The notes under the pieces were generated by a model. That model ran no database searches. It saw only the letters and a list, made by a program, of their open reading frames with translations, and was not told the origin of the DNA. The translations under genes and the position numbers were made by a program. 55,975 nucleotides of DNA from a virus (taxonomy: Duplodnaviria; Caudoviricetes), in IMG/VR virus record IMGVR_UViG_3300030012_003256, positions 1 through 55,975 of that record; one strand, written 5' to 3'. This document shows, one piece after another, positions 18,944 to 55,494 of this stretch (its first letter is position 1; each line of letters opens with the position of its first letter).

Positions 18944-19861
18944 TCACAACCATGAATCATTTTGTGCCGCTTCACAAATTCCATAATAAGAACAATACTG
19001 AGAGCAGGTTTTCATGTAAAATGTAGCAGGGAAATGTCCTTGCTCATAAGTATAAATTAACTTAGCAATATTATCCCAAAGAGCCGTCATGGAACGCTTC
19101 TTAACAGGTTCAACGGTAATGTGATTAGCCACAGGATAATACCAACCCCAATGACTAACCTCCATGTCTTTTGTCAATCCATATTTTTCAAGCACTTCTT
19201 CGGGTGCATTCTCAATCATCAATTGATAGAAAGCCATTTCTTGACGCATAGAAGAAGCCTTAGAATCTTTCCAACTGCCTGTCTTATATTCAAAAGGAAT
19301 TAGTTTCCCATTCTCAATAAACACACGGTCAATGATACCTTGAAGTCTCACAACATAATCTCGTTGTAAAGGATATTTCTTACTTACATTTTTAGGAACA
19401 GTAATTTCACAATCAAATAATTTTTCATTGATAACTGGAAGAAATTCATCAACTCTTTTTTCGCTTTTTGCCTCAATGAACCGTTGTGCCTCAAATGCGG
19501 CAACAGTTAGAGAAATATCAAAATAATCATCAATAGGCATTAAAGCGGTGCAATATTCTAAAATTTCTGAGTTATTCATGCCCTCTGCCTTTTTAATATC
19601 AAATTCTTCAAAGAAAGCCTCTCTATGATTATGTAGAATAGTTCCTTTTCTCATCGCTTCTGTTTGGTCTGTTGGTAATCGCTGAATATAAGCAAATTCG
19701 TATTTCTTGTTGCACCAACCAAAAGAATTTACTAAAGAAGATTTACTAATCTTTAGAATTGGTTTTGATGGGTCGTCTGCATTTTCAGGCTTCCAATCAT
19801 AAGTAAAGTCTCTCATAGACTTAATTCTTGCTTCATATTTTTCATCTGTATTCAAAACCAT
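18944..19861 (-). CDS. Cas4-like PD-(D/E)XK exonuclease
   Basis: GTILH, GIIDR, EYKTG, QMAFY; one N-terminal Cys plus C-terminal CxxxCxxxxxC Fe-S ligands. Confidence 0.8.
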   Translation of the reverse strand: MVLNTDEKYEARIKSMRDFTYDWKPENADDPSKPILKISKSSLVNSFGWCNKKYEFAYIQRLPTDQTEAMRKGTILHNHREAFFEEFDIKKAEGMNNSEILEYCTALMPIDDYFDISLTVAAFEAQRFIEAKSEKRVDEFLPVINEKLFDCEITVPKNVSKKYPLQRDYVVRLQGIIDRVFIENGKLIPFEYKTGSWKDSKASSMRQEMAFYQLMIENAPEEVLEKYGLTKDMEVSHWGWYYPVANHITVEPVKKRSMTALWDNIAKLIYTYEQGHFPATFYMKTCSQYCSYYGICEAAQNDSWL

Positions 19862-20745
19862 TCCTCCAATGTTTTTTGTATTCTTCCTGTTCTAATACTG
19901 GATAAATCCCAGTCCATAGCCTTAAAAATAGGTTCAGCCTTCTTCAAAACCTGTTCGGCATAGTGTTCAAGGTCGGGAAGAAGGCCGCTAAAGTCTTTCA
20001 TTTCAACACCGGATATAAACTCAACGGCTCGTTTTTCATGTGTCAAGGGATGCGTATAGACATCGTTCATACCCTTTACTTTCAAAAATAAATATGAATC
20101 ATCAAAATTAGCGTCATATTTTTCCCAAGCATATAAAACACCAGCAATACCCGAACCTATTGATGGCTTTTTGCCTTCAATTGTAGTAAAGTTCTTTATT
20201 GGTGAAGCACATTTGGGGCAAGCCCTATATTTCATGGTAATACAATCTCTCAGATGATATTTTGAACGACATTCGGGGCATTTTACCTCAAAACGATTTC
20301 TTCTTAATCGGCTTCTTTTAATAAAAGAATCAAGAGGCATTTTACCAGACATGATTTCTTCATAGGTTTTATGAAGAGAGGCAACGATTTCTTCCTGTGT
20401 TTTCTCACTAACCCACATTTTAAGAGTCCGAGTTTGCACTTCTTTTGCCATTTTTGTTTCACTAACACGCTTTGCAGTAAAACCTGTCATTGTGAACTTT
20501 GGCTCATCAAGCCATACTCCATCATCCCAAGTAATCAATCCTGCGTTTCTGTTTTTCGTAGTGCCGACCCCAAGAGCCGAATAAAACTTTTCAAACTCCA
20601 GACTAACGGGATGCTGTTCAAGTCCGAGAACATTCGGGAAACTTTTTTTGACTTCATCTTCAATCACCTTAATTGCTTTTTGTGCGGCTTCTACGGAATC
20701 AATTTGCACATAGATAGAATCTGTATGTCCATAAACCACTTTCAT
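19852..20745 (-). CDS. polB: family B DNA polymerase, C-terminal part (motif C, thumb)
   Basis: Starts MKVVYGHTDSIYV; LEFEK, KNRNAG; CxxC...CxxC insertion. Confidence 0.85.
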   Translation of the reverse strand: MKVVYGHTDSIYVQIDSVEAAQKAIKVIEDEVKKSFPNVLGLEQHPVSLEFEKFYSALGVGTTKNRNAGLITWDDGVWLDEPKFTMTGFTAKRVSETKMAKEVQTRTLKMWVSEKTQEEIVASLHKTYEEIMSGKMPLDSFIKRSRLRRNRFEVKCPECRSKYHLRDCITMKYRACPKCASPIKNFTTIEGKKPSIGSGIAGVLYAWEKYDANFDDSYLFLKVKGMNDVYTHPLTHEKRAVEFISGVEMKDFSGLLPDLEHYAEQVLKKAEPIFKAMDWDLSSIRTGRIQKTLEEWF

Positions 20746-21259: not shown

Positions 21260-21437
21260 CTACAATAGTAATTAATTTAGAATGCCTTGATAAATAGGAA
21301 CCTATTGTAGTCGTGTTTTCTAAATATCTTAAGGTTTTCATTTTATCAACCATTCTATCTTTCATTTGTGCCGCAGAAAAACCGTCTGGCATATTTGGTA
21401 TTTCTTTATCAATTTTCTTACTTAAAAAACTATTCAT
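21213..21437 (-). CDS. small winged-helix-like protein (between polB halves)
   Basis: FSAAQM...TTTIGSYLSR..YWR, similar in pattern to 27154-27384. Confidence 0.45.
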   Translation of the reverse strand: MNSFLSKKIDKEIPNMPDGFSAAQMKDRMVDKMKTLRYLENTTTIGSYLSRHSKLITIVDDRNKRTYWRTEHEN

Positions 21438-23124
21438 CTATTTTCATCTCCTTTGCTTTAAATGCGGCAAGTCTAATTGCTTCTCTTGCACTTGCGGTAA
21501 TAGATGCGGCTAAATCAACATCAGCCCATCCAAATCCTTGAAAAGCAACAATGCCATAAAAAGAGGCCATTAATCGCTTTACTGCCATTTGATTGTTATA
21601 CCATTTAGCATACTCGCCGTTGTCCTCCTTTTGTGCTTGATACATAAGTCGCTTATATTCATTTCGCAACTCCTTCAATTCAAGAACGGCTCTCGGTAAA
21701 AGACCGAGTTTATCTGTTTTATAGTAAAGCATATCTTGATATTTAACTTCACTAAAATCTCTTGGTGTAAGAATATTTACAGCAAATTCTGTTGGTTGTT
21801 TTGATTTTGTTTCCCAACTAATATTGCGAGCAATCATCATTGAAGGATATAGACCAGCAAAATCAAAAGCGGCAACATTCAAATGTAATCCGTTTGTCTC
21901 TTCGCTTAACGGGTCATAAATCATCGCACCTTCATATTCTTTGCGTTCATCAACCTTTTTACCTGTTGGTGCTTTCCAAGTAGCATTTCGCATAAAATAA
22001 ATACTACCCATATGAGAAGCATAGAAACAAGCATCAAATGGTGCTTTCAATAACCTTTGAAGTGAAAGAATCGCTTCACTACAAAAATTAGTCTCATCAA
22101 TTTCAACCATCAGTTCAACATCTCTCACAGCATACTTAAGATAAGTTCCTGTATCTTCTAACCAACCTTTACGATAAAACTCGTTAGTATCTGGAAACTT
22201 CCAAGAAACCAATTTCTTTTTGTTAAGAACAGTCTCTCCGATATAATCAAGCGATAAAGAAGGTAATGTTCCTCTTTGGCTGTCATTCCATTGTCTTTCA
22301 AAAGCAAGGTCTAACGAGAGGGTTATGCGACCCCCTACGGGTTGCTCAATGGGAGAGAACCCACTTTCACCATAGGCGAAAGAGAAGCCGTCCTTGACCT
22401 TTTTAACGCCCTTAACGAAGCCAATTGGAGACATGATGCGAGGGTCAAGACCCACGGCACACACCCGTTCAAATAATTTCGGTAAATCAGCAAAATGACC
22501 AAACCAAGCAATTAACATATCTGGGTCTTTTACAATCATTGTAGTCATAAAAGATTCAAGCATTTCTTTTTCTGAAGGAAAAATATGCAAGTGCGTTTCG
22601 GTGTCGTTGGAAAGTGCTTCCCAATCAAAGGAATGCTTCGTGTGCATTTTATTAGGAAACCAGACCCATTGAATATACTTTTCATCGTAGTTATCATAAG
22701 AAACAATTGTTGTAATGCAATCGTGATATTCTCCGCCTTGTTGCCATTCCATATCCCAATACCACTTTCGCAGTTTATATTCAGGCATTTCATCTAATTC
22801 ATCAACACAATACCGAAAATGCAAAGGAACATCTGCCTCATAGGTTTCATTCCACATCTTCTTTGCATTACGAACATCATTTGCATTCTCAACAAAAACT
22901 TTTTTCAAAGACTTCCCTTCAAGATTAGTCCAGTTGCCACGAACATATTCAAAGTCTCTAGTAATATATTTACTTGGCGAATAACTAAAAAATTCTGTGG
23001 CTTCTTCATCCACAAAGAAGTATGGTCTAAAATTTACCATTTCATACTTTCTTTCACCGTTTTCTCTCCATGCTTTATATATTCTCATTCCATCATTCAT
23101 TTTATTAATAATCACTAATATCAC
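21430..23124 (-). CDS. polB: family B DNA polymerase, N-terminal part (exonuclease, motifs A and B)
   Basis: FRPYF, YEADV, WDME, YAVRD, DFAGLYPS, QMAVKRLMASFYG, ITASAR. Confidence 0.9.
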   Translation of the reverse strand: MILVIINKMNDGMRIYKAWRENGERKYEMVNFRPYFFVDEEATEFFSYSPSKYITRDFEYVRGNWTNLEGKSLKKVFVENANDVRNAKKMWNETYEADVPLHFRYCVDELDEMPEYKLRKWYWDMEWQQGGEYHDCITTIVSYDNYDEKYIQWVWFPNKMHTKHSFDWEALSNDTETHLHIFPSEKEMLESFMTTMIVKDPDMLIAWFGHFADLPKLFERVCAVGLDPRIMSPIGFVKGVKKVKDGFSFAYGESGFSPIEQPVGGRITLSLDLAFERQWNDSQRGTLPSLSLDYIGETVLNKKKLVSWKFPDTNEFYRKGWLEDTGTYLKYAVRDVELMVEIDETNFCSEAILSLQRLLKAPFDACFYASHMGSIYFMRNATWKAPTGKKVDERKEYEGAMIYDPLSEETNGLHLNVAAFDFAGLYPSMMIARNISWETKSKQPTEFAVNILTPRDFSEVKYQDMLYYKTDKLGLLPRAVLELKELRNEYKRLMYQAQKEDNGEYAKWYNNQMAVKRLMASFYGIVAFQGFGWADVDLAASITASAREAIRLAAFKAKEMKIDE

Positions 23125-33221: not shown

Positions 33222-34745
33222 TTATTCCTCCACCAATACTGCAACATCTGTTGAATAAAACAATTGAGCAATTGATAATGCCGCTAAGAAACTGTTCTTA
33301 GAAACCTTCACGGGGTCAAAGACTCCTGCTTTAAACAAATCTTCGTGCTGACACGAAACAGCATTAAAACCCCAGTTAGGATTTGTTCCATCAATTGTTT
33401 TTTCAATTTCAAAAGAAACAATCCTTGTTTGCTCGGTAAAGTTTGCATTATCCAAAAGAACATGATAAGGCTCAACAACAGACTTTTTAAACCAAACTGG
33501 CGCATCAATAGCGTGAGCAAGACGAATGAATGGAACACCACCACCAACAACAATACCTTCTTCAAGAGCCGCTTTTGTTGCATTAAGAGCATCATCAAGT
33601 CGCTCTTTCTTTTCTCGCATTTCAATTGATGAAGAAGCACCAACTTTGATTGTAGCAACACCGCCCTTTAGACGAGTAATACGAGACTTAATTCGTGCCG
33701 CATCATATCCTTTCATTTCACTCAATGTTTTTTTGAGCGTAGCAATTCGTTCATCAGCATTTCCCTCACCACCCATAAAGGTAGTATTTTCTTTACTGAT
33801 GATAACCTTCTCACAAGTCCCAAAATCAGAAACAACAAACTGTTGAGGACTGTCTTTGCTTTCGTGGTTGAATACCTTTCCACCAACAATTGCTTGAATG
33901 TCAGCCAATTCATCAATTTGTGCATCACCAAAGTTAGGTGCAAGAATAGCCGCACACTCCACAGTCTTATTAATCAGATTCATCAATAAATTGTTCAACG
34001 CTGAACTTTCCATACCCTTACAAAGAATCAGCAAAGGTCTTCCGTTCTGCGAAGAATACTCAAGCATTGGCAACAAATCCTTAAAAGAACGGAAAGGAAT
34101 GTTGGATAAGAAAATCAATGGGTTTTCAAATTCAACCTTGCCGCTTTCGGTGTTGCACATTAAATGACTGATATATCCTTCAGGAACTTCCATTCCCTCT
34201 CGGAGAATCAATTTTGTAGCATAATTGTTAGATTCTTCAACGGTGATAACACCATCACGACCGACCGTATTAAACGCTTCTTGAATCAAATGGCCAAGAG
34301 AAGCATCGTTATTCGCAGCAATTGTAGCAATATTTAGAATATCTGAATCTTCGACTGACATCGAGATATTATCTAAGAAATTAATAGTTTGTTGGCGAAG
34401 GTTCTCCATCAAGAGGTTAAAGTCGTGTGCTGTCATTTTATCTTCATTATTAAATAATTCATTACAAAAAGCCTGTGCAAGAATACAAGCCGTTGTAGTT
34501 CCATCACCTGAACCTTCTTGTGCCTTACTTGCCAGATTTTGAACTAATTGCACACCCATTTGAACATAAGGGTCTTCATGGGAAATATACTTCGTAATTG
34601 TTACACCGTCATTAATTACAACTGGTGGATTACCCTGCAAAATAACAGTTTTTGCTTGTGGCCCTAATGTTGGTTTAACGGTATCAGCCACCAAGTTAAT
34701 TCCTTGTAGCAGTTTTTCTTTTACTTCTCTTCCTTTAATAATCAT
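33222..34745 (-). CDS. groEL: group I (GroEL-type) chaperonin
   Basis: TLGP, INDGVT, GDGTTT, DGVITVEE, APNFGD, GGVATIKVG, DDALNATKAA, DPVKV. Confidence 0.92.
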   Translation of the reverse strand: MIIKGREVKEKLLQGINLVADTVKPTLGPQAKTVILQGNPPVVINDGVTITKYISHEDPYVQMGVQLVQNLASKAQEGSGDGTTTACILAQAFCNELFNNEDKMTAHDFNLLMENLRQQTINFLDNISMSVEDSDILNIATIAANNDASLGHLIQEAFNTVGRDGVITVEESNNYATKLILREGMEVPEGYISHLMCNTESGKVEFENPLIFLSNIPFRSFKDLLPMLEYSSQNGRPLLILCKGMESSALNNLLMNLINKTVECAAILAPNFGDAQIDELADIQAIVGGKVFNHESKDSPQQFVVSDFGTCEKVIISKENTTFMGGEGNADERIATLKKTLSEMKGYDAARIKSRITRLKGGVATIKVGASSSIEMREKKERLDDALNATKAALEEGIVVGGGVPFIRLAHAIDAPVWFKKSVVEPYHVLLDNANFTEQTRIVSFEIEKTIDGTNPNWGFNAVSCQHEDLFKAGVFDPVKVSKNSFLAALSIAQLFYSTDVAVLVEE

Positions 34746-37252: not shown

Positions 37253-37810
37253 TTACATATTTATTACGGTGTATTCTTTTACTTCTTCTCCGTTGAAGAA
37301 CCTTTGAATCCATTGTGCGCCTAATCCTGCGATTGCGACTTGCATAAAATGAACTCCTGTATTTGTTCCATCCCATGAATCCCCTTGACAACTGAAAGAA
37401 CCTTCTTCACCTGCTAAGAGCATATCATACATTTTAGGGTCGGCCTTGTGCGACACAAGGGCGGCGTTTCTACCCTGCGCTCGTAGGTCAAGCCATTTAA
37501 GACTTGTGTTGTATAATGTTCGCCTGACGCTCAAGTTATCAACACAACAAACCACAAGGTCATAACCCTGCATCTGCTTCTTAGTCAAAATAGGATATTC
37601 GCTACCAAGACTGACAGAATCATAATTTTCAGCCATAATGGATGCCTTGTTGCGACTTACATGACCGAGATTAAAGTTTTGATAAGATATATTCTTATCT
37701 TCAACTGAATCTGGGTCAGCCACAGTTATATCATAAAGACCTACTTTATCTAAAAGGGGAATTAGAAAACTTCCAATTCCACCTGCTCCAATTACTAATA
37801 CTTTTCTCAT
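37253..37810 (-). CDS. ThiF/E1-like ubiquitin-like-protein activating enzyme
   Basis: VIGAGGIGS, DPDSVEDKNISYQ, NKA, CVDN..VR, WLD; candidate catalytic Cys in FSCQ. Confidence 0.9.
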   Translation of the reverse strand: MRKVLVIGAGGIGSFLIPLLDKVGLYDITVADPDSVEDKNISYQNFNLGHVSRNKASIMAENYDSVSLGSEYPILTKKQMQGYDLVVCCVDNLSVRRTLYNTSLKWLDLRAQGRNAALVSHKADPKMYDMLLAGEEGSFSCQGDSWDGTNTGVHFMQVAIAGLGAQWIQRFFNGEEVKEYTVINM

Positions 37811-38807: not shown

Positions 38808-38992
38808 TGTTTCACCTCAATATATCCTCGCTCAATCTGAACCTTTCGTGGTAAGCATTTTGCACACATAGCAAACACTTCTCCATTATTTACCCAGAGT
38901 TTTGATTCTTCACGGCTCATTTCTTTTCCACATTTATCGCAAGTTGTAATAGCACGATAATGCTCATTTGTTTTGTTTTTATTTTTTACCAT
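38804..38992 (-). CDS. small Zn-finger protein
   Basis: CDKCG...CAKC. Confidence 0.55.
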   Translation of the reverse strand: MVKNKNKTNEHYRAITTCDKCGKEMSREESKLWVNNGEVFAMCAKCLPRKVQIERGYIEVKQ

Positions 38993-39852
38993 AATTTTTT
39001 CCCCCTAATTTCTTTAACCTTTTTCATATCGAGATAGGATAAAAGGGTTCTAGTATTTTTTAATAAACTATCTCTTTTTTTGTTTGTTTTTTCACAAATG
39101 TATTTTTGTGTAATTTCTGTGTGTGAAAGAATCACATTTGCAGTAATCCAGCAAATACATTCATAGTGATTAACTGTTTTGTTATAGTCATTTGCTTCAA
39201 GAATAGTTTCAAAATATTCCATTGTCTTGACCGCTTCTTTATTAAAATCATTTCCAGCATTTAGTTTAGAAAGAACTCTATCTAAAAGAAAGTATTTATT
39301 CTCACGCACAGGTCTAAAACCTACATGTTTCTTTATCTTCTTTACTACCTTTTTTGCTTTTGGTATTTCAGAAGATAAGTCTAAAGCCACCTCTTCAAAG
39401 GTATGCGGTGTTCCTTGTTTTAGTAGCAGAAAATATACAATAGATACTGCTCTTGTCTCATAAGTGTCGCTAGTTGAAAATACGCCCCTATTGAATAAGT
39501 CAAGATATAACTTATGCATTTCTTCTTGATTTAGAAGATGACTAAATGGTGCAAAAACCATATTGCAGTTATGCAGACCGTCCATTACATATGGTGGGAG
39601 AACTGAATTAATAGTTTTCTTAACTACATGTGATTTAATATTTTTAATATCACCAACAATGGAAGAACCCAATCCACGATTGAATAGTCCCAAGTTAGCA
39701 GTATGGGTCGCTTCTCCACCTTTAAAGCCTAAAGTGGTCTGCTCAAAGATTTGAACATCAAGAACAAGACCGCATACAGAACAGACGGTTTCTCCAAGAG
39801 TTTCGTCAAATTCGTTGTTTCGGCTTCCACAATCTTCACATTTCAATTTCAT
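38986..39852 (-). CDS. tfb: TFB/TFIIB-like transcription initiation factor
   Basis: CEDCGS...GETVCSVCGLV Zn ribbon followed by two cyclin-like repeats. Confidence 0.8.
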   Translation of the reverse strand: MKLKCEDCGSRNNEFDETLGETVCSVCGLVLDVQIFEQTTLGFKGGEATHTANLGLFNRGLGSSIVGDIKNIKSHVVKKTINSVLPPYVMDGLHNCNMVFAPFSHLLNQEEMHKLYLDLFNRGVFSTSDTYETRAVSIVYFLLLKQGTPHTFEEVALDLSSEIPKAKKVVKKIKKHVGFRPVRENKYFLLDRVLSKLNAGNDFNKEAVKTMEYFETILEANDYNKTVNHYECICWITANVILSHTEITQKYICEKTNKKRDSLLKNTRTLLSYLDMKKVKEIRGKKLW

Positions 39853-40966
39853 CAAAATCAAACCTATTTTCATTTTTATTACCGACCAAATAGCGTCGGA
39901 TGGTGCTCACAATTTGTATCGTAAAAGTGTCATTTAATAAGGCTAACGCTCTTGCGGCGAATTGGTCGCCAAGTGAGGAACCCTTTGCCATATTGTCAAT
40001 ACAAATTGGGCCTCGCCAATCTATGTCATCTTCATCATCTTTTCTAATGGGTTGCCAAACATATGTTGAAACCATCTGAATTTCAGACTTAAATTTAGTG
40101 TCTGTAATTTTCCAGTCGTAGTCCTTTCCTTTAACATAGAGAGAAGAAAGTTCACCCTCTTCATCATAAGTGGCTCTAAGTCTGTCGGGGTACTGGTTAA
40201 GAAGTTCTTGAACCAATTCAATGGCTCTTTGTTCAACAATATCTTGTGTTCGGTTCTGCGAAAGAAATGCTCTCATCACTTTCATGCTTGATTCCGAACC
40301 TTCTTCATCCATTAGACGATAATAAAGTTCATCGGGGCTAATATTTACCCAAGAACCGACTTTCTTCCCATGAAGATAAAAATTACAGAAAGTATTTAAT
40401 TCTCGGACGGTCATTGTTCCCCAAATACCATCACTAATCTCAACTGCGATTTCTTTATCGCCAATCTGCTGACAGTTAAGACGAACCTCAATTTTTTCAC
40501 GACTCTCATTAAAATCATAAAAGAAATAAGGAATACGATTTTCAAGACAATACTTTACATCAGCAGGTAGATTCAGCGTTGCATACAAAGTAAGTAATAA
40601 CTTAGCAGGGTCTTGTTCAAAACAAGATTTATATGTCAAACGAGCCAATGCAGAAATAATATCTGCCAAATTAGCAACCTTGCCATTTATTTCATAACGA
40701 ATACCTGAACGAGAAAGCAATACGGGACAGGAACCAATTTTAACTAAATGATTAAAAGTTGGCTGAAAGCCATTTCTACGATTATATCTTGTCTTTTTAG
40801 GAGACAAATAGCCCCGCCAGTAGTTCTCAATTCCTGCTAAAACAGGGTCTTTCTTTGACCTGTTCGGCCTAATAAGTTCTCTGGAAAAGGTAAAGGTTTC
40901 ACAATTAATTGTAGTGTTATATTTTTCACCACTATCATCGGGTTTTTGAATTTGAATTTCTGCCAT
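39836..40966 (-). CDS. uncharacterised protein; candidate divergent E2 (UBC-like) C-terminal domain
   Basis: IDWRGPICIDNM resembles the UBC active site ID..G.ICLD; no HPN motif. Confidence 0.4.
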   Translation of the reverse strand: MAEIQIQKPDDSGEKYNTTINCETFTFSRELIRPNRSKKDPVLAGIENYWRGYLSPKKTRYNRRNGFQPTFNHLVKIGSCPVLLSRSGIRYEINGKVANLADIISALARLTYKSCFEQDPAKLLLTLYATLNLPADVKYCLENRIPYFFYDFNESREKIEVRLNCQQIGDKEIAVEISDGIWGTMTVRELNTFCNFYLHGKKVGSWVNISPDELYYRLMDEEGSESSMKVMRAFLSQNRTQDIVEQRAIELVQELLNQYPDRLRATYDEEGELSSLYVKGKDYDWKITDTKFKSEIQMVSTYVWQPIRKDDEDDIDWRGPICIDNMAKGSSLGDQFAARALALLNDTFTIQIVSTIRRYLVGNKNENRFDFDEIEM

Positions 40967-48808: not shown

Positions 48809-50242
48809 TCAATTAATTCCCGGCCTTGGGCCAACAAAGAATAAATTCTGCTTTGCTCTGGTAATAGCAACATAACAAATGTTGTTTTCCTCATGTCCTC
48901 CCTTCGGATGAGGCATTCTATTCGTAGCAAGGATATAAACATTATCTGCTTCAAGTCCCTTTGCTTTATGAACAGTAGAAAGCATAATTTCTCCAACATC
49001 AGGATTGTCAAAAACACGCTTAATTTCTTCAATGATTCCACCGACAGTTGTTGCTTTACCAACAAAGATAGCGATACAATCCCGCCTATCTTCAAGAGCA
49101 AAGGCTTGAGACTTTTTATCTTCGCTAATTAATTTTTCATATTTAAAATCAAAGTCTTTCTCATACAATTGCCAGAACTCGTCTGAACCCATATGTTTAT
49201 TCTTTGAAATCTTCTCAACCGCCATAATTAATCCTTTAGTCATATCACGACCAAGAATATATGCAGATTTACCCGCACTAATTAATTCGTAAAACGCCCC
49301 AACTAAAGGTGCATTATATCTACAAAGAACCATATCATCTGCTTGTGGATTAAACGGAGCATCTTCAATGACACTACCATTAATTGCATTTTCATGGTAT
49401 TTTAGTTCAGGAACATATCTATTGGCTTCTTTAACAACCGATACGGGACACCGCCATGTAATTGAAAGAGGAAAATCGCTGATTTTTCTCTCGCCCTTTG
49501 AAAGACGCTGATGAAACATGGCAATTGAGTTTGAGTCAGCCCCACGGAAGCCGTAAATTGCTTGGTTTTTATCACCAACAATAATACAACGACCACCATT
49601 AACGCTTCGCATAATCAACTCACGCTGGCTTTCATTGAAATCTTGTGCTTCATCAACAAATAGAATATCATAGCGAGGAAGAGGGTAATTATTTACCAAT
49701 GGCAACCAAACCATGTCATCAAAATCAATCAAATGAGTTTGAGTTTTGCACATCGTAAGAATGGCTGGCATGGCTTCAAGAACGATATTTAATTCTCGTT
49801 CTGAATGAAAGTTGATGTTATATTCACCAATAAGTCCGTGTAGTGATTTGATGTCTTTTGCATCAATAAGGCTACCTTTGACTAAAGAAACCAGTTTCTT
49901 TACAGGTGGTATGTGAAAGTCCTTCCCAAGAAGTTCTTTTACAATATTATTTACTTTAAAGTTATTCACCTTTGTTCTTACTCCAGCACTACGAATAGCG
50001 GCAAATCCAAAGGCATGGAAAGTTTTTGCTTCTACATTGTCCGGTAGTCGCTCTTGTAATTCAGTAGCAATTGATTTATTGAAAGCCAAAAATGCTGCTT
50101 TTGTATTTTCAGGGAGTCTGTTTGCACCTTCAACAATAGTGAAGGTTTTACCGCATCCTGCACCTGCGCTAACAAATACATGGTCTTCTGTGTTTTCAAT
50201 TGCATTCCAAATGTTTTCTTGTTCTTGTGTTCCTTTTATCAT
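48809..50242 (-). CDS. SF1 UvrD/Rep-like helicase
   Basis: AGAGCGKT, AFNK, TFH, VDEAQD, VGD.NQAIYGFRGA, TVHKAKGLE, YVAITRA. Confidence 0.92.
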   Translation of the reverse strand: MIKGTQEQENIWNAIENTEDHVFVSAGAGCGKTFTIVEGANRLPENTKAAFLAFNKSIATELQERLPDNVEAKTFHAFGFAAIRSAGVRTKVNNFKVNNIVKELLGKDFHIPPVKKLVSLVKGSLIDAKDIKSLHGLIGEYNINFHSERELNIVLEAMPAILTMCKTQTHLIDFDDMVWLPLVNNYPLPRYDILFVDEAQDFNESQRELIMRSVNGGRCIIVGDKNQAIYGFRGADSNSIAMFHQRLSKGERKISDFPLSITWRCPVSVVKEANRYVPELKYHENAINGSVIEDAPFNPQADDMVLCRYNAPLVGAFYELISAGKSAYILGRDMTKGLIMAVEKISKNKHMGSDEFWQLYEKDFDFKYEKLISEDKKSQAFALEDRRDCIAIFVGKATTVGGIIEEIKRVFDNPDVGEIMLSTVHKAKGLEADNVYILATNRMPHPKGGHEENNICYVAITRAKQNLFFVGPRPGIN

Positions 50243-50346
50243 GTTTCTTTCTCCTGTAAATTAGGGAATAGGTGGAGAAGGAGGCAAAACCGAACTTAAT
50301 CGGTCATACTTCGTTTGTTGCCCCTGCCTCAACTTCTCCGTGAAAA

Positions 50347-50433
50347 TGGTGCTGAGAGCAGGATTTGAACCTGCGAACCGTTAAGGACAGGAGTTTAAGC
50401 CCTGCGTGTTTAACCATGCTCCACCATCTCAGC
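50347..50433 (-). tRNA. tRNA-Leu(UAA), CCA encoded
   Basis: GCTGAGA...CAGGG-CT-TAA-AC-TCCTG, long variable arm, GTTCAAATC, TCTCAGC-A-CCA. Confidence 0.9.
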
Positions 50434-50582
50434 ATTTGAATTTGTATAATGAAATGAGAATATTTACATTAAATAGATGGAATAGTGCAACCATTCGGCG
50501 CACTTCAACAGGGGCAGGAGCGAGCCGTATAAGACCGGCGGCACCCCCCTCACTCTTTGTTGGCTGTTTGATTAAATCCTCA

Positions 50583-50843
50583 TCAATTAAACCTAATGAG
50601 GTAGATAAGCCACAAACAAAGACCTACAACAATTGACCCCCAAAAAAGTCTCAATCGTACATTGTTTGGAGGATTACATTTTTTCTTCAAGCAGTAATGA
50701 CTGGTTGAAATAACCCCATGATGCACATAGGATTCAAGAAGATGATTTGAACCTTCAGGAATATCAATACCGCAAGACTGGCAAATATAGTCTTGTTTTG
50801 CTTTGACATAAACTTCTTCAACAAGACGCATTAAATCACCCAA
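50583..50843 (-). CDS. Zn-finger plus C-terminal TM protein
   Basis: KAKQDYICQSCG..I; hydrophobic C-terminus. Confidence 0.5.
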   Translation of the reverse strand: MGDLMRLVEEVYVKAKQDYICQSCGIDIPEGSNHLLESYVHHGVISTSHYCLKKKCNPPNNVRLRLFWGSIVVGLCLWLIYLIRFN

Positions 50844-50910
50844 AGGAGGAAGAAGAGAGGAAAAGCCCGAAAGCCCCCAAGTTCATGCGCCTCTCTTCTT
50901 CCATTTGTGG

Positions 50911-50949
50911 AAAAGGGGGGAATAGGGAACCTTGGCTCCCTATTCCCCA
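50911..50949 (-). terminator. terminator after 50996-51463
   Basis: GGGGAATAGGGA...TCCCTATTCCCC hairpin plus T-run on the minus strand. Confidence 0.6.
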
Positions 50950-50995
50950 TTGTTCAGTTCAAGGAACTGGAAATGCAAACAATAAAGAATTAACT

Positions 50996-51463
50996 TTATT
51001 CTTCGGAGGAAAGGAGGGAATCAACGCTTCCGTCCCATTGTCCGTCTTTATACAACTTTCCGAGGTTGTTGCGGGTTCGCTTAACAACTGCGGAAGCGTA
51101 TTCATTTGCATCTTCAAAAGCACCGCCACCAGATTTGATGTGCTTCATGGTAATTGCACCGATGATTTCATCGTGGTTAAAGTAGCCAGTAGCGGCTTCT
51201 TCAACAACTCCACAAATTCGGTCAATTGATACACGAACTGCGGCTGGAACAGCAGATTTTTGACCCCTTCGGAAAGGTGTGCCATCTCTGCCCTTCAAAA
51301 GTGCTTTCAAAGCACCTTCGGCGGCGGTTCGCTCATCAGGGTTGTTAGACCCAATTTGCAGGTTCAATTCAACGACTTGACGCAATCCAGCATCAAGCGA
51401 GGTGTCGGCTTCAAGGTATTCATTGACCTCAATAACGAGGCTTTCCCATTGTGTGTCGTCCAT
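50996..51463 (-). CDS. unknown protein, paralog family member 1
   Basis: Shares L.LG...D.R, RRG..S, GG.F, YKDG.WDGS with 53552 and 54725. Confidence 0.7.
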   Translation of the reverse strand: MDDTQWESLVIEVNEYLEADTSLDAGLRQVVELNLQIGSNNPDERTAAEGALKALLKGRDGTPFRRGQKSAVPAAVRVSIDRICGVVEEAATGYFNHDEIIGAITMKHIKSGGGAFEDANEYASAVVKRTRNNLGKLYKDGQWDGSVDSLLSSEE

Positions 51464-51499
51464 ATTTTTTCAACTCCAAGCCATTTTGTTGGCTCTGAA

Positions 51500-51535
51500 C
51501 TTTCCTCTTGTCAATGGTATATAAGGGGCTTCATC
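51500..51535 (-). promoter_or_regulatory. archaeal-type promoter, twin of the Ubl promoter
   Basis: GATGAAGCCCCTTATATA..TTGA.AA.AGGAAAG. Confidence 0.7.
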
Positions 51536-51724
51536 TCCAAGGATGAGGTGTAATTTTTGCACCGCCGAAGGCAGAACCGAATCCGGCGAGGGCAGATTTG
51601 AATTTGCATAGCGGCATCTTTCAATCGTGTTTAAAATGAATCAAATGATTTCTTTTATCTTTACTTTGCCCTAATGTAATTAATTGTTCAAAATGAATAG
51701 CGATTGAAAGACATTAACGCTTCC

Positions 51725-52055
51725 ACGCCATGAGAACCTTTCTCATGTGTTTCGCAGTCCATGAGAATCGGGGTTATGCAACACAACCTTTTCAAAACTA
51801 AACGAAAACAGCATTTTGCCCCACCTTTTTCGCATTTCTCATTTTCGCATGGGGGGCCATGATATTCTCCCTCTCATAATAGGGCACTTGTGTAAAGACA
51901 CATAAGCCCCTAATTTTAGAGGGGCATATTTCAGACACAGTATGATAATAATGAGAATATGATAATATATGTAAAACATATATCTTCTGCTACACAACCC
52001 TTTCATATTTGAGGGGATAGTGTTTCTCATCCCATGAGAAGTTCATGCGAAACAG
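51725..52055. repeat. cluster of ATG(A/C)GAA / TTC(T/G)CAT iteron-like repeats (candidate origin)
   Basis: About 12 copies in both orientations in the noncoding gap at the strand switch. Confidence 0.5.
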
Positions 52056-52293
52056 TTCATACTTCTCTATAATACTAATATTCATATTCGTATTCTTATA
52101 CGAATTAATATAAGAACAATTGAATACTACCCAAATGACTCAATATCAAATTAAGGGGTAATAATTTATACAAAGTAATGCAGTTGAAGCATATGTAAAA
52201 CAACATAATGTCGCTTTTAATGATGTATTCAAACCATATGGTTTGAGACACTTTGTAGACTTAAACCCTATATTCTCTAAGAATGGCTTAATT

Positions 52294-52578
52294 ATGTGCA
52301 GAGAATGTGTAAAAGCCTTGACCACCATTAGCCCGTTGATGAAAGCCCACCTCAAAGAGAAGTTCAATGAGTCTATGAAAAACGATTTGAAGATTCTTGA
52401 TGCCAATGTTCCGTTTCTTCGTGCTTACGAAATGCACGCTGAAGCCCTTAAACACACCATTGATTCGGTCTTGATGGAAGAAATCGGTGATATGGTCGTT
52501 TCTCTCCTTACCGGCGATATGTCCGGCATGATGGAAATGTTGGGCGAATCCAGCGACTTTCAAAAGGAGTGGGCTTGA
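52294..52578 (+). CDS. hypothetical early protein (probably leaderless)
   Basis: ATG 28 nt after CCCTATATT; MCRECVK start. Confidence 0.6.
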   Translation: MCRECVKALTTISPLMKAHLKEKFNESMKNDLKILDANVPFLRAYEMHAEALKHTIDSVLMEEIGDMVVSLLTGDMSGMMEMLGESSDFQKEWA

Positions 52579-52737
52579 ATGAAGAAAGAAATGAAAGAAA
52601 TCGTGTTTGAAATCCTTAACTATGCTGTTGATGCCTTGAAGTATGAAAGCCGTGGTGATGAACATTACAAAATCTCTTTGAGTCTTCTCAAAAGTTCTTC
52701 ACAACAACTTTTCTATTCTTGGGAAGAGGAAGAATAG
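52579..52737 (+). CDS. 52-aa hypothetical protein
   Basis: Manual ORF with AGGAG SD. Confidence 0.55.
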   Translation: MKKEMKEIVFEILNYAVDALKYESRGDEHYKISLSLLKSSSQQLFYSWEEEE

Positions 52738-52819
52738 TGCCTTCGGGCCATTAAAACAAAGCATGACCATATGGTTGTATTGCTTTGCAATTAAAACCAT
52801 ATACTGCAAAAGCACCCCT

Positions 52820-53400
52820 CTTTTGCTTCGGGGGTCGCTCCCCCGAAGGGGATTGACCGAATACCCTTGTTGGTGGGGGTAAGGTGTGATTTTTCTTGTA
52901 GTGAGACACATAGCGAATATGACGGCCAAGCGGTATAGATTATTTGTTCCCTGTGAAAGCGATTAAGGCTCAAAAGGCGCATGGCTACTAACCATGTTCG
53001 TAAAATCAGCAGACTGGCTCTTAAGACACTAAGAGCACCAAAAAGTGAGAGCGACCCAATCGTTTCAGTCTTGGAGATACCCAATTCTTCATCCCATCCT
53101 TCACATTCCTATGGCTATTAGTGGCCATAAAACCATAGTGAAACAAAGCCGAAACACAGCGTAGTAAATCGTGAAAGCAACAAGTAGCCTTCTATTGGTA
53201 TACCAGTTTTAGGAATAAGGAACAAAGTAGCGTAGTTAAGCGGATATGTATGGAGTAGGCGGCGTTTTATTCTCACAGCCACCTGTTAGAGAGCAACTGA
53301 TGTAGGAAACAGCATTGGCAATTGTAAAGGCACAAACGGGCATATTAGTAAAAATATCAATCATAATGAGACTTTTCCCTGCCCCGTTTGTTGCCCCCTC
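52820..53400 (+). ncRNA. candidate large structured noncoding RNA (~570 nt)
   Basis: Cassette-type promoter and end motifs, no + strand ORF >=60 aa, many hairpins and long-range complementarity. Confidence 0.55.
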
Positions 53401-53551
53401 AAAATATATTGGGGTTAAACATTACATTTGCAAAGCATTAAACCATATGGTTGTAGACTTTGTATTACAACCCTATTATATTCAATAGGGAATCCATTGT
53501 TGCTTCAAGGGGCTAACTTGAGCAACACCAACCGAAAAGAGGTGAAAAAAC

Positions 53552-54091
53552 ATGAAGAAAAACAACTGGATAAGTAATGCAAACAAAGTGCGAGCATGGG
53601 CCGAAAATCAAGACCCAAGCGATAACTTGAGTGCCGTTATGCTTTCCCTTCAACTGGGAGACAATGCGGCCAATGATGACCTTCGTTCTACCTATTGGAC
53701 AGCAATTCGTTCAATTGGTTCAACTATGGATGGTTTTCCACAGGCCCGCCGTGGCAGGGAAAGCAATCTATCAGAAACGCAGGAACTTGTTTTGGCGACT
53801 GTGGAGGAAAGCGTGGCATATGCCTTTGCTCAAATCCCTACTGAATACCACGAACTACTCCTTACGGTAATTGTTCCACACGGGCGAACTGGTGGCGTTT
53901 ATGGCTCCTTTGACGAATTGTGCGCTTCTTTCAAGAAGCAAGCACATAACTACATCATTCAATCAATGAAGGATGGTCGTGTGGCTATGACCAAAGACGG
54001 CGAATTTGACATGAAGGGCGACCTTCTTCAAATCACGCCCCGAACCAAGCCTATCAAGGCTGAATCTGACGGAGGTTCGGCAGAAGAGTGA
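53552..54091 (+). CDS. unknown protein, paralog family member 2
   Basis: GAGGTG SD; DDLRSTYWTAIRSIGS..FP.ARRGRES..PHGRTGG. Confidence 0.8.
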   Translation: MKKNNWISNANKVRAWAENQDPSDNLSAVMLSLQLGDNAANDDLRSTYWTAIRSIGSTMDGFPQARRGRESNLSETQELVLATVEESVAYAFAQIPTEYHELLLTVIVPHGRTGGVYGSFDELCASFKKQAHNYIIQSMKDGRVAMTKDGEFDMKGDLLQITPRTKPIKAESDGGSAEE

Positions 54092-54230
54092 TTGCAACAG
54101 GTTAGCCCCTTGTTGCCCCCTTTAGCCTTCGGGCTATTGGGGTTCGCCATTACATTAACAAAGTCTCAAACCATATGGTAAGAGAAACTTTGTGGCTACG
54201 CACCCTATATTGTATTAGTTAGGCTTTATC

Positions 54231-54461
54231 ATGTTTACCCGACAGCATTACGAAAGAATAGCCGAAAACCTTGCAGATAACCGAGAGGTTCACCCTAAGA
54301 CCATTGAAATTATGATTTGGTCATTCAAGTGCGATAATCCACGCTTTGACGAGAACCGCTTTCTTGAATACTTCTACGCCGAATATGTCGAAAGCCACGG
54401 TTTCCAGTACCCTTGGGTATTGGAAGAGGATAACCCAAAATTGACCATTCCTCATGTATGA
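54231..54461 (+). CDS. hypothetical protein (leaderless)
   Basis: TRQHYE.IA...F..DNPRFD..RF motif seen in small phage proteins; same promoter spacing as 52294. Confidence 0.7.
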   Translation: MFTRQHYERIAENLADNREVHPKTIEIMIWSFKCDNPRFDENRFLEYFYAEYVESHGFQYPWVLEEDNPKLTIPHV

Positions 54462-54724
54462 GGTAAAACCGCCCGACAATTGGCGACCCTCGGCCAATTA
54501 GCCCGACCCGAACAAACAGGGAAGGCAGGGATTAAAGACCACCCACGGAGAAAAGGGTTAATTCTCCGTGGGTGGCATCGGGCCGTTTCACTTAATTAAC
54601 AAAGCATATTACCATATGGTTGTAATGGCTTTGCCTGCACTTTAATTACAACCTTATACTGAATAGTGGGGTCTTGGTTGCTTCGGGGAGTTATGAAGCA
54701 TCAAACCCACTTGGAGGAATTGAT

Positions 54725-55231
54725 ATGAATACGAAAAATTGGACGAAAAACACGAATGCCGTTCTTGCGTGGCTTGGGCGTGAAGAACGAGGTGATAACG
54801 GTAAGGCCATTGAATTGAGCATTATGCTTGGAAATGGTGCAGAGAACGACGATATGCGTTCTACTTACTGGACGGCTATCCGAAGTATTGGGAGCGTTTA
54901 TGACGATTTCCCAGTCGCTCGCCGTGGTCGGGAGTCTTCACTTCCCGACTATGTGGAGCAAAATGCGCTTTCTGTGAAGAATGCGGTTCAAAATGCCTTT
55001 GCCACCATTGGTAGTGCTGACTTGATTTTGCAGGTCATTCTGCCTCATGGACGAACTGGCGGTGCTTTTGCAGATATTGAAGCATTGGCGGAGAACTACG
55101 CTGAAAAGGCGTACAAGGCTCTTTTGACCGGCTACAAAGATGGTCGTTGGGATGGCTCGCTTGATGGCGAAATGCCCAACATGACCCCACCTGCCGTGAA
55201 AACGGCTGAAGGAGGTCAAGAAGAGGAATGA
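54725..55231 (+). CDS. unknown protein, paralog family member 3
   Basis: GGAGG SD before ATG 54725; DDMRSTYWTAIRSIGS..FP.ARRGRES..PHGRTGG. Confidence 0.8.
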   Translation: MNTKNWTKNTNAVLAWLGREERGDNGKAIELSIMLGNGAENDDMRSTYWTAIRSIGSVYDDFPVARRGRESSLPDYVEQNALSVKNAVQNAFATIGSADLILQVILPHGRTGGAFADIEALAENYAEKAYKALLTGYKDGRWDGSLDGEMPNMTPPAVKTAEGGQEEE

Positions 55232-55288
55232 TGCGGATTAACTCCCCGTTGCCCCTTTTTGGGGTTTCCGTAAACTGGCAAAGCCAAA

Positions 55289-55494
55289 CCATATGGTTGT
55301 AAAGTTGTTAATAACTACTATATAGGTTTGTATAACTGGTGTAGTTATTCATCATAGATGGCTGTAAACAATGTTTAAACAGTTGCGTAATGCGTTCTAT
55401 AGAAAAGCGTTAGTGTATATTTAACGAAATAAACAAAAAGAAATGGTAGTTATTAACAACTTTTCGCGCTTCATAAGAACATACAACCATATGG
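55289..55494. repeat. nested inverted repeats
   Basis: Perfect 18-bp IR at 55301-55318 / 55446-55463, inside inverted CCATATGGTTGTA copies. Confidence 0.75.

Follow-up and report, generated by a model that had tools for sequence, protein, structure and literature searches.

End-to-end pairing in the predicted mRNAs of two paralogous genes of a likely magrovirus

The virus record IMGVR_UViG_3300030012_003256, a stretch of 55,975 nucleotides (nt) analysed here at its full length and referred to as the window, carries two paralogous genes near its end, termed A and B, each of whose 5' untranslated region (UTR) can pair with its own 3' UTR. The pairing would close each message into a panhandle, and comparison with related viruses makes it very probable that it is a selected RNA structure. 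An earlier description of the same sequence (the original prediction) had seen two stems that differ in sequence while remaining paired, and compensatory changes across about 90 distinct copies bear this out. Its main proposal, selected end-to-end closure of the mRNA, is supported both by these changes and by the register of a shared promoter, according to which transcription is predicted to begin with the stem's first base. The structure may well serve to protect transcript ends, and we weigh this function against several alternatives below.

Two stems and their conservation in relatives

Gene A (53552..54091, plus strand) encodes 179 amino acids (aa) and is preceded by a Shine-Dalgarno-like GAGGUG at 53539-53544, while gene B (54725..55231, plus strand) encodes 168 aa and is preceded by GGAGG at 54713-54717. 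The start of gene B was placed at the ATG at 54725, which is common to all relatives; the TTG at 54674 proposed by the open reading frame (ORF) finder falls within the promoter and leader. The two proteins share 46% amino-acid identity, in agreement with the paralogy claimed for them, and the gene order A-B is kept in relatives.

Both stems can be read directly in the sequence where they had been placed. In panhandle A, the 5' arm (53502..53525, plus strand) consists of GCUUC, beginning at the predicted +1 (G 53502), followed by 53507-53525, and the 3' arm (54092..54116, plus strand) begins directly after the stop codon and ends in GUUGC, with the closing C at 54116. Pairing of 53507-53525 with 54092-54111 comprises 11 Watson-Crick pairs, then U.G, U-A and G-C pairs, a 1x2 internal loop and four further pairs; the stem holds a perfect inverted repeat of 12 base pairs (bp; 53506-53517 / 54101-54112). 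In panhandle B, the 5' arm (54680..54703, plus strand) runs from the predicted +1 (G 54680) through GCUUC, helix I, the loop UGAA and helix II (GCAUCA), and the 3' arm (55229..55252, plus strand) has the stop codon UGA in helix II and also ends in GUUGC, with the closing C at 55252. Here 54684-54703 pairs with 55229-55248 through 10 bp, a 4x4 loop (5' UGAA against 5' GGAU, forming U.U, G.A, A.G and A.G) and 6 bp, the last helix including the stop codon. An inverted-repeat listing gives these arms as 20 nt of 80% complementarity with a perfect core of 10 bp. The framing motifs of the original prediction were found at both genes, TTGCTTC on the 5' side (53500-53506 and 54678-54684) and TTGCCCC on the 3' side (54113-54119 and 55249-55255). 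The latter combines two elements, the closing GC of the stem and the first Cs of the hairpin that follows. The arms themselves stand as predicted, and the helix proved to be five bases longer in the outward direction, through pairing of GCUUC with GU(N)GC that includes a conserved U.U mismatch.

Single-sequence evidence for the stems is weak. With the 3' flank shuffled 500 times, the duplex energy of gene A was matched once and that of gene B 138 times, and 10-mer inverted repeats spaced 150-2500 nt apart are common in this AT-rich window (394 raw matches, compared with a mean of 243 in 20 shuffles). Comparison with relatives was decisive. Among 307 metagenomic relatives, 80 were kept, and an alignment of 13 sequences was used to find related loci; the 116 loci gave 160 family members, and of these 99 differed from one another in their flanks (68 B-type, 27 A-type and 4 C-type). 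A common plan is found in every A and B copy: G-C-(U/A)-U-C followed by a G-rich arm on the 5' side and, on the 3' side, a complementary C-rich arm whose start coincides with the stop codon or lies immediately past it and whose last bases are G-(U/C)-N-G-C, with CCC directly next. Within this plan there are 29 distinct 8-nt arm cores (helix I) in B-type copies and 8 in A-type copies, and the partners change along with them.

Covariation was counted over 16 pairs in an alignment of the 68 B-type transcripts (alignment A4) and compared with 500 shuffles. Paired cells made up 84.1%, as opposed to 73.1% in shuffles, and double-sided changes occupied 137 cells compared with 33.8 +/- 5.6; neither value was reached in any of the 500 shuffles. 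The covariation score was 0.380, versus 0.154 after shuffling and 0.09-0.13 when partners were slid by 1-3 columns, and double changes occurred in 10 of 12 pairs of the outer helix. In a count that needs no alignment, 77 of 93 distinct A and B copies formed 12 or more of the 14 GC-anchored end pairs, as opposed to 36 of 465 non-cognate pairings; most of these copies keep the complementarity whose loss in homologs had been named as evidence against closure. Cognate 5'/3' duplexes had a mean energy of -37.4 kcal/mol, compared with -23.8 kcal/mol for non-cognate ones (n = 95), and the cognate partner was better than every distant partner in 69 of the 95. When whole transcripts (~600 nt) were folded, at least nine of the first 14 nt paired with the 3' arm in 77 of 82 minimum-energy structures, including those of both window copies.

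Some features of the stem hardly vary. In B-type copies, the closing pairs are kept as G-C (67/68) and C-G (62/68), position 4 is unpaired in 64/68, mostly as a U.U mismatch, and a purine-rich (G/A) internal loop always lies between the variable outer helix I and the inner helix II. The inner helix joins GCAU with AUGA(U)GC; the stop codon forms part of it, and in many copies it reaches back into the last codons. The tandem G.A loop described for gene B is present in the window copy and is not universal, with GA on both strands in about 25 of the 68 B-type copies. G.U occupies 26 cells and A.C 18 cells, a modest lean towards an RNA of the sense strand; the sense strand is favoured because G.U exceeds A.C and because promoter, Shine-Dalgarno site and hairpin all share its orientation.

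Promoter register and transcript ends

All five transcription units within 52.2-55.3 kb carry a palindromic box, CAAAG-N-CCATATGG-N-CTTTG, followed by ACC-N-TAT. In the promoter of gene A (53428..53480, plus strand), the box (with CCATATGG at 53443-53450) precedes ACAACC and the TATA-like TATTATATT, whose T-A-T lies at 53477-53479, positions -25 to -23. In that of gene B (54599..54661, plus strand), CCATATGG at 54612-54619 precedes ACAACC and the TATA-like TTATACT, with T-A-T at 54655-54657 (-25 to -23). A profile aligned on the first base of the stem has A-C-C at -29 to -27, T-A-T at -25 to -23, T at -1 and G at +1, and this spacing is the geometry of an archaeal TATA box with an initiator.

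Two leaderless units of the same promoter class calibrate this register: a two-gene unit (52294..52737, plus strand; genes at 52294-52578 and 52579-52737) and a neighbouring gene (54231..54461, plus strand), which serves as an internal ruler for the start. Counting from the T at -25, +1 falls on the A of the ATG at 52294 and 54231, and on the G of GCUUC at 52825 (a noncoding unit) and 54680 (gene B). The TAT is duplicated in gene A, where the second copy puts +1 on the G of GCUUC at 53502. In both leaderless units the A of the ATG lies 25 nt past the T of the TATA-like box and no Shine-Dalgarno sequence is present. In 18 of 19 distinct rows, homologues of the gene at 54231 in relatives have a box at the same distance from the ATG and no Shine-Dalgarno sequence; the remaining row has GGAGG instead. 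Since one and the same spacing gives a +1 at the A of the ATG for the leaderless neighbours and at the G of GCUUC for A and B, the stem appears to begin at the first transcribed nucleotide. A start downstream of the 5' arm had been named as an observation that would count against closure; the promoter register instead puts the predicted start at the first base of that arm.

The octamer CCATATGG occurs seven times in the window, compared with 0.6 expected (at 52234, 52767, 53443, 54171, 54612, 55289 and 55487), each time inside a longer palindrome upstream of a TATA-like box. The copies at 55289 and 55487, the latter inverted, do not have the usual TATA spacing and lie on either side of a 34-nt inverted repeat (55301-55334 / 55430-55463). 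The palindrome is probably the operator of a dimeric regulator that controls one early-gene regulon.

At the other end of the transcript, a hairpin abuts the closing pair of each panhandle. That of panhandle A (54117..54142, plus strand) has the form CCCC ... GGGG with an inner stem-loop and is likely a 3'-end or terminator structure; that of panhandle B (55253..55264, plus strand) is a short CCC-UUUUU-GGG(G) hairpin followed by UUU. Of 82 copies, 63 have a hairpin of at least 4 bp that starts no more than 2 nt past the closing C, the spacing being 0 nt in 53, and a short U-rich stretch comes after it. The hairpin can stack on the closing G1-C pair, and the transcript would end at it.

We also considered whether the arms act at the level of DNA, as recombination arms or the ends of a mobile gene cassette, which was among the possibilities raised by the original prediction. 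The inverted repeats do flank each gene between short direct motifs (TTGC...), and the region is a mosaic of repeated promoter modules. However, the arms differ between genes and between lineages and nevertheless stay complementary, which no shared recombinase site needs, and they have no core site in common beyond the transcript-end motifs. Moreover, the pairing tolerates G.U and takes in the stop codon, the arms fit exactly between the predicted start and the 3' hairpin, and relatives retain A and B in the same order. On this evidence a role as a DNA element is extremely unlikely. As for particular kinds of mobile cassette, integron attC sites and transposon terminal repeats were tried as candidates and rejected, as the copies have no core or repeats in common and their arms differ and covary; GTTGCTT does not fit GTTRRRY, which we take to be the integron core.

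The noncoding unit that shares this promoter class (52825..53415, plus strand) is about 570 nt long, has no conserved ORF, starts with GCUUC and ends in a GUUGCCCC hairpin. Its 5' end has no long-range stem and instead forms, from nt 2, a local 9-bp hairpin, CUUCGGGGG-UCGCU-CCCCCGAAG, that is conserved in 9 copies. Over 52825-53397, nucleotide identity is 70-94% in more than 40 related loci, substitutions are without three-base periodicity and indels are frequent, making the unit a candidate for a conserved large viral noncoding RNA. Its predicted fold over the same interval was no better than that of shuffles (z -1.1), and an Rfam search over 52700-53500 returned only a weak match to the manA RNA (19.7 bits compared with a gathering score of 55.2; E 0.011). 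Sequestration of the 5' end looks like a theme common to the coding and noncoding transcripts of this promoter class. Separately, a 13-nt copy of the end of the unit (53385-53397, CGTTTGTTGCCCC) is found at 50312-50324 on the plus strand, adjoining a viral tRNA-Leu (50347-50433, minus strand).

End protection and the alternatives to it

We propose that the main job of the stem is to protect the transcript ends and thereby stabilise complete transcripts, a reading to which we assign a probability of roughly 0.55. A and B would each be transcribed from the shared viral promoter type, with its palindromic CCATATGG box and ACC-N-TAT 25 nt upstream, to give transcripts that start with G-C-U-U-C. 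Some 24-30 nt of the 5' UTR would then pair with the stop codon and the next 21-22 nt, closing the mRNA into a panhandle around the whole reading frame, and a GC-rich hairpin directly 3' would be able to stack on the closing G1-C pair. The stem would shield the 5' triphosphate end, and jointly with the hairpin also the 3' end, from exonucleases that depend on a free end, with the outcome that complete transcripts would be long-lived. Stability may in addition be tied to translation, because the stop codon and the region adjacent to the Shine-Dalgarno sequence lie in or beside the stem. Protection of the ends fits the 5'-terminal position of the stem, the abutting hairpin and the noncoding neighbour, and it has a bacterial precedent in hbs, discussed below.

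Several observations weigh against this proposal. End protection leaves the distant 3' partner unexplained, as a local hairpin suffices in the noncoding neighbour. The leaderless neighbours and a third, more distant paralog (C) are without such pairing, and so it is not a general need of the transcripts of this virus. The near-invariant mismatch at position 4 and the purine-rich loop at a fixed place suggest recognition by a specific factor. For the structure itself, the duplex energy of gene B taken alone is not unusual (reached by 138 of 500 shuffles of the 3' flank), and the excess of G.U over A.C is only modest. Finally, RNA contigs over 53400-55320 covered only the coding region of gene A (53533-54066, 100% identity) and left the ends uncovered; in the metatranscriptome, comprising four runs of one sample, 0.11-0.22 of the sampled words were present.

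A first alternative is that the stem is a translation device, which places the stop codon beside the ribosome-binding site for re-initiation in a closed loop or gates translation until the transcript is complete. Termination-reinitiation coupling exists in archaea. Helix II holds the stop codon and often the last codons too, and about 8-10 nt lie between the end of the stem's 5' strand and GGAGG; furthermore, translational regulation in haloarchaea needs both the 5' and the 3' UTR, according to the abstract of PMC2636863. A ribosome at the stop codon would nevertheless have to melt much of the 3' arm, and the noncoding neighbour has a paired GCUUC 5' end without any translation. Because that unit also has a paired 5' terminus, we prefer a role in protecting the 5' end to one that is purely translational, and consider the latter rather unlikely.

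The stem might otherwise be a platform for a viral or host protein, perhaps the encoded protein itself or the K-turn binder L7Ae, that reads the GCUUC/GUNGC end with its U.U mismatch or the purine-rich loop. The mismatch kept at position 4 in 64/68 copies, the closing G-C (67/68) and C-G (62/68) pairs and the constant place of the G/A-rich loop between helices I and II would all suit such a reader. The loop, however, is symmetric and variable in sequence, and GCUUC may be conserved simply as an initiator or initially transcribed sequence. L7Ae in particular had been suggested as a binder, and the stems give this no support: the internal loop is 4x4 in B and 1x2 in A and varies among copies. 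Judged as a kink-turn, the motif has no 3-nt bulge before tandem sheared G.A/A.G pairs, and only about 25/68 copies have GA on both strands.

Nor do the encoded proteins belong to a recognisable RNA-binding family or fold. The A and B proteins matched no Pfam or PHROG family, and the ESM Atlas gave no usable match for the encoded protein. An AlphaFold model of it is mostly helical, with a mean pLDDT of 77. This model had no significant match in Foldseek (best E 1.2), and its VIA-align matches were limited to three-helix bundles of a generic kind (best Z 7.8 over 59 residues). We therefore regard a protein-binding platform as distinctly unlikely.

Equally doubtful in our judgement is a related possibility, that the stem is a dedicated signature of viral transcripts whose junction is read by a viral or host factor. 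Such a factor would recognise GCUUC/GUNGC with the kept U.U, where the abutting hairpin would hold the 5' triphosphate to the 3' end as if at a nick in a continuous helix. It may in this way tell viral from host messages during a shut-off of host mRNA or, alternatively, may trim the ends and join them, giving a circular mRNA that is proof against exonucleases and around which ribosomes could run.

The ends could also be a signal for processing or circularisation, either through cleavage of the stem by a double-strand-specific or splicing-type endonuclease or through ligation of the apposed ends into a circular mRNA. In archaea, pre-rRNAs are cut out of long processing stems and circularised, and the hairpin, which in 53 of 82 copies follows the closing C with a spacing of 0 nt, would put G1 in a nick-like position at the hairpin base. 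Inspection of the stems by eye, without a dedicated search program, revealed no bulge-helix-bulge, the motif in which 3-nt bulges on opposite strands flank a 4-bp helix. The RNA contigs, which left the transcript ends uncovered, included none that were back-joined, and a primary 5' triphosphate is no substrate for a ligase without further processing. We consider a processing or circularisation signal to be very unlikely.

Known systems, neighbouring genes and the virus

To our knowledge, direct pairing between the two UTRs of a message is established for only a few bacterial mRNAs, where it rests on experiment and not on broad comparison. In Bacillus subtilis hbs, a 14-bp pairing of the 5' UTR with the 3' UTR modulates cleavage by RNase Y, as set out in part of the report by Braun, Durand and Condon (2017, PMC5737220). 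There, as in A and B, the UTRs of a single mRNA pair with each other; hbs is small and highly expressed, and in that account the pairing affects access of a ribonuclease to the leader. Unlike the stems described here, which start at the predicted +1, span about 24-30 bp and would act in an archaeal host, the hbs interaction is bacterial and places 14 bp over an internal RNase Y site. The viral stems differ further in including the stop codon and in having a hairpin directly after them, and their support comes from covariation, not experiment. Complementarity kept in evolution, as expected of direct 5' UTR-3' UTR pairing of the hbs or icaR kind, is found in A and B.

In icaR of Staphylococcus aureus, the 3' UTR reportedly covers the Shine-Dalgarno sequence, represses translation and invites RNase III. 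The resemblance to A and B lies in the pairing of a C-rich segment of the 3' UTR with a G-rich segment of the 5' UTR of the same mRNA, as given in part of PMC3868564. In contrast to icaR, the pairing described here covers nt 1-26 and leaves GGAGG, at nt 34-38, outside, and the 3' arm is therefore not an anti-Shine-Dalgarno segment in the sense of icaR. Both ribosome-binding motifs, GGAGG (54713-54717) and GAGGUG (53539-53544), lie outside a stem that spans nt 1-24 (or 26). As a separate observation, the 5' arms themselves (54685-54693 and relatives) are nearly always G-rich and Shine-Dalgarno-like (GGAGG, GGGAG, GAGGG), and the 3' arms resemble an anti-Shine-Dalgarno sequence. This likeness may be a mere trace of compensatory changes of the transition type, or it may be relevant to ribosome binding.

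Long terminal helices formed by the 5' and 3' flanks of one RNA are also known from the rRNA processing stems of archaea and bacteria and from the panhandles of segmented negative-strand RNA viruses. The former are cleavage substrates and the latter are polymerase promoters. Unlike either, the stems of A and B belong to mRNAs of a double-stranded DNA (dsDNA) virus, and no bulge-helix-bulge was found in them. Closer in its host is the interplay of UTRs in haloarchaea (Brenneis and Soppa, 2009, PMC2636863), which is archaeal and in which both UTRs are needed for a post-transcriptional effect. It differs in concerning cellular genes and growth-phase regulation, and its abstract reports no direct pairing or covariation. 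In our literature searches no account emerged of mRNAs paired end to end in archaea or in viruses of archaea, and the words promoter, repeat, palindrom and paralog are absent from the main text of the magrovirus paper (PMC5434244).

Genes A and B are a natural case whose comparative support is unusually clean. The stem, which probably has the first transcribed nucleotide as its start, surrounds the entire reading frame, and dozens of compensatory changes have preserved its pairing among uncultured ocean viruses of an abundant group. The case may provide a handle on how archaeal mRNAs, which have neither caps nor poly(A) tails, are protected or recycled, on how archaeal viruses secure the expression of early genes and on design rules for stable mRNAs in archaeal hosts. 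The region also yields a defined viral promoter whose start-site register can be measured, along with a candidate conserved noncoding RNA.

Paralog C (50996..51463, minus strand) is 27-28% identical to A and B and has a different promoter and an ordinary hairpin terminator. No convincing end pairing was found for it, only a 6-bp match between leader and 3' UTR that does not covary in the 4 copies seen. In the leaderless gene at 54231, a 6-bp match between the first codons and the bases past the stop codon is not kept in relatives. Across the window, Rfam 15 at the gathering score reported two tRNAs and no other family, and so the stems match no curated RNA family.

The window constitutes the whole virus record, which is estimated to be 59% complete. 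Its Pfam matches include an ERCC4/XPF nuclease with HhH, a family B DNA polymerase in two pieces, an ATP-dependent DNA ligase, an RFC-like AAA protein, a thermosome-type chaperonin, a TFIIB zinc ribbon protein, a ribonucleotide reductase and a tail tube protein. The polymerase occupies two ORFs about 680 nt apart (19852-20745 and 21430-23124, minus strand); the chaperonin lies at 33222-34745 and a ThiF-family (E1-like) protein at 37253-37810, both on the minus strand. The zinc ribbon protein (38986-39873, minus strand; Pfam E 9.7e-9) is possibly a viral TFB that steers the host RNA polymerase to viral promoters like those of the A/B type. Given this gene set (XPF, split PolB, thermosome, TFIIB-like protein and ATP-dependent ligase), the virus is an archaeal tailed virus.

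Within the archaeal tailed viruses, its gene content makes it likely to be a magrovirus, one of the tailed viruses of Marine Group II archaea, whose gene set in the main text of Philosof et al. matches that of the window (PMC5434244). That text describes magroviruses as having about 90-100 kb of dsDNA, with PolB, RFC-like and ATP-dependent ligase genes and a chaperonin or thermosome gene, and it reports split polymerase genes in one magrovirus group (PMC5434244). Relatives of the window virus comprise hundreds of contigs from marine metagenomes as well as contigs about 92-97 kb long. No provirus was confirmed among 185,579 species genomes, and tblastn gave no match among GenBank phages. The G+C content of the window is about 35%, and composition differs along its length: G+C is 41-42% at 50000-54000, in the early-gene region, compared with 33-40% elsewhere.

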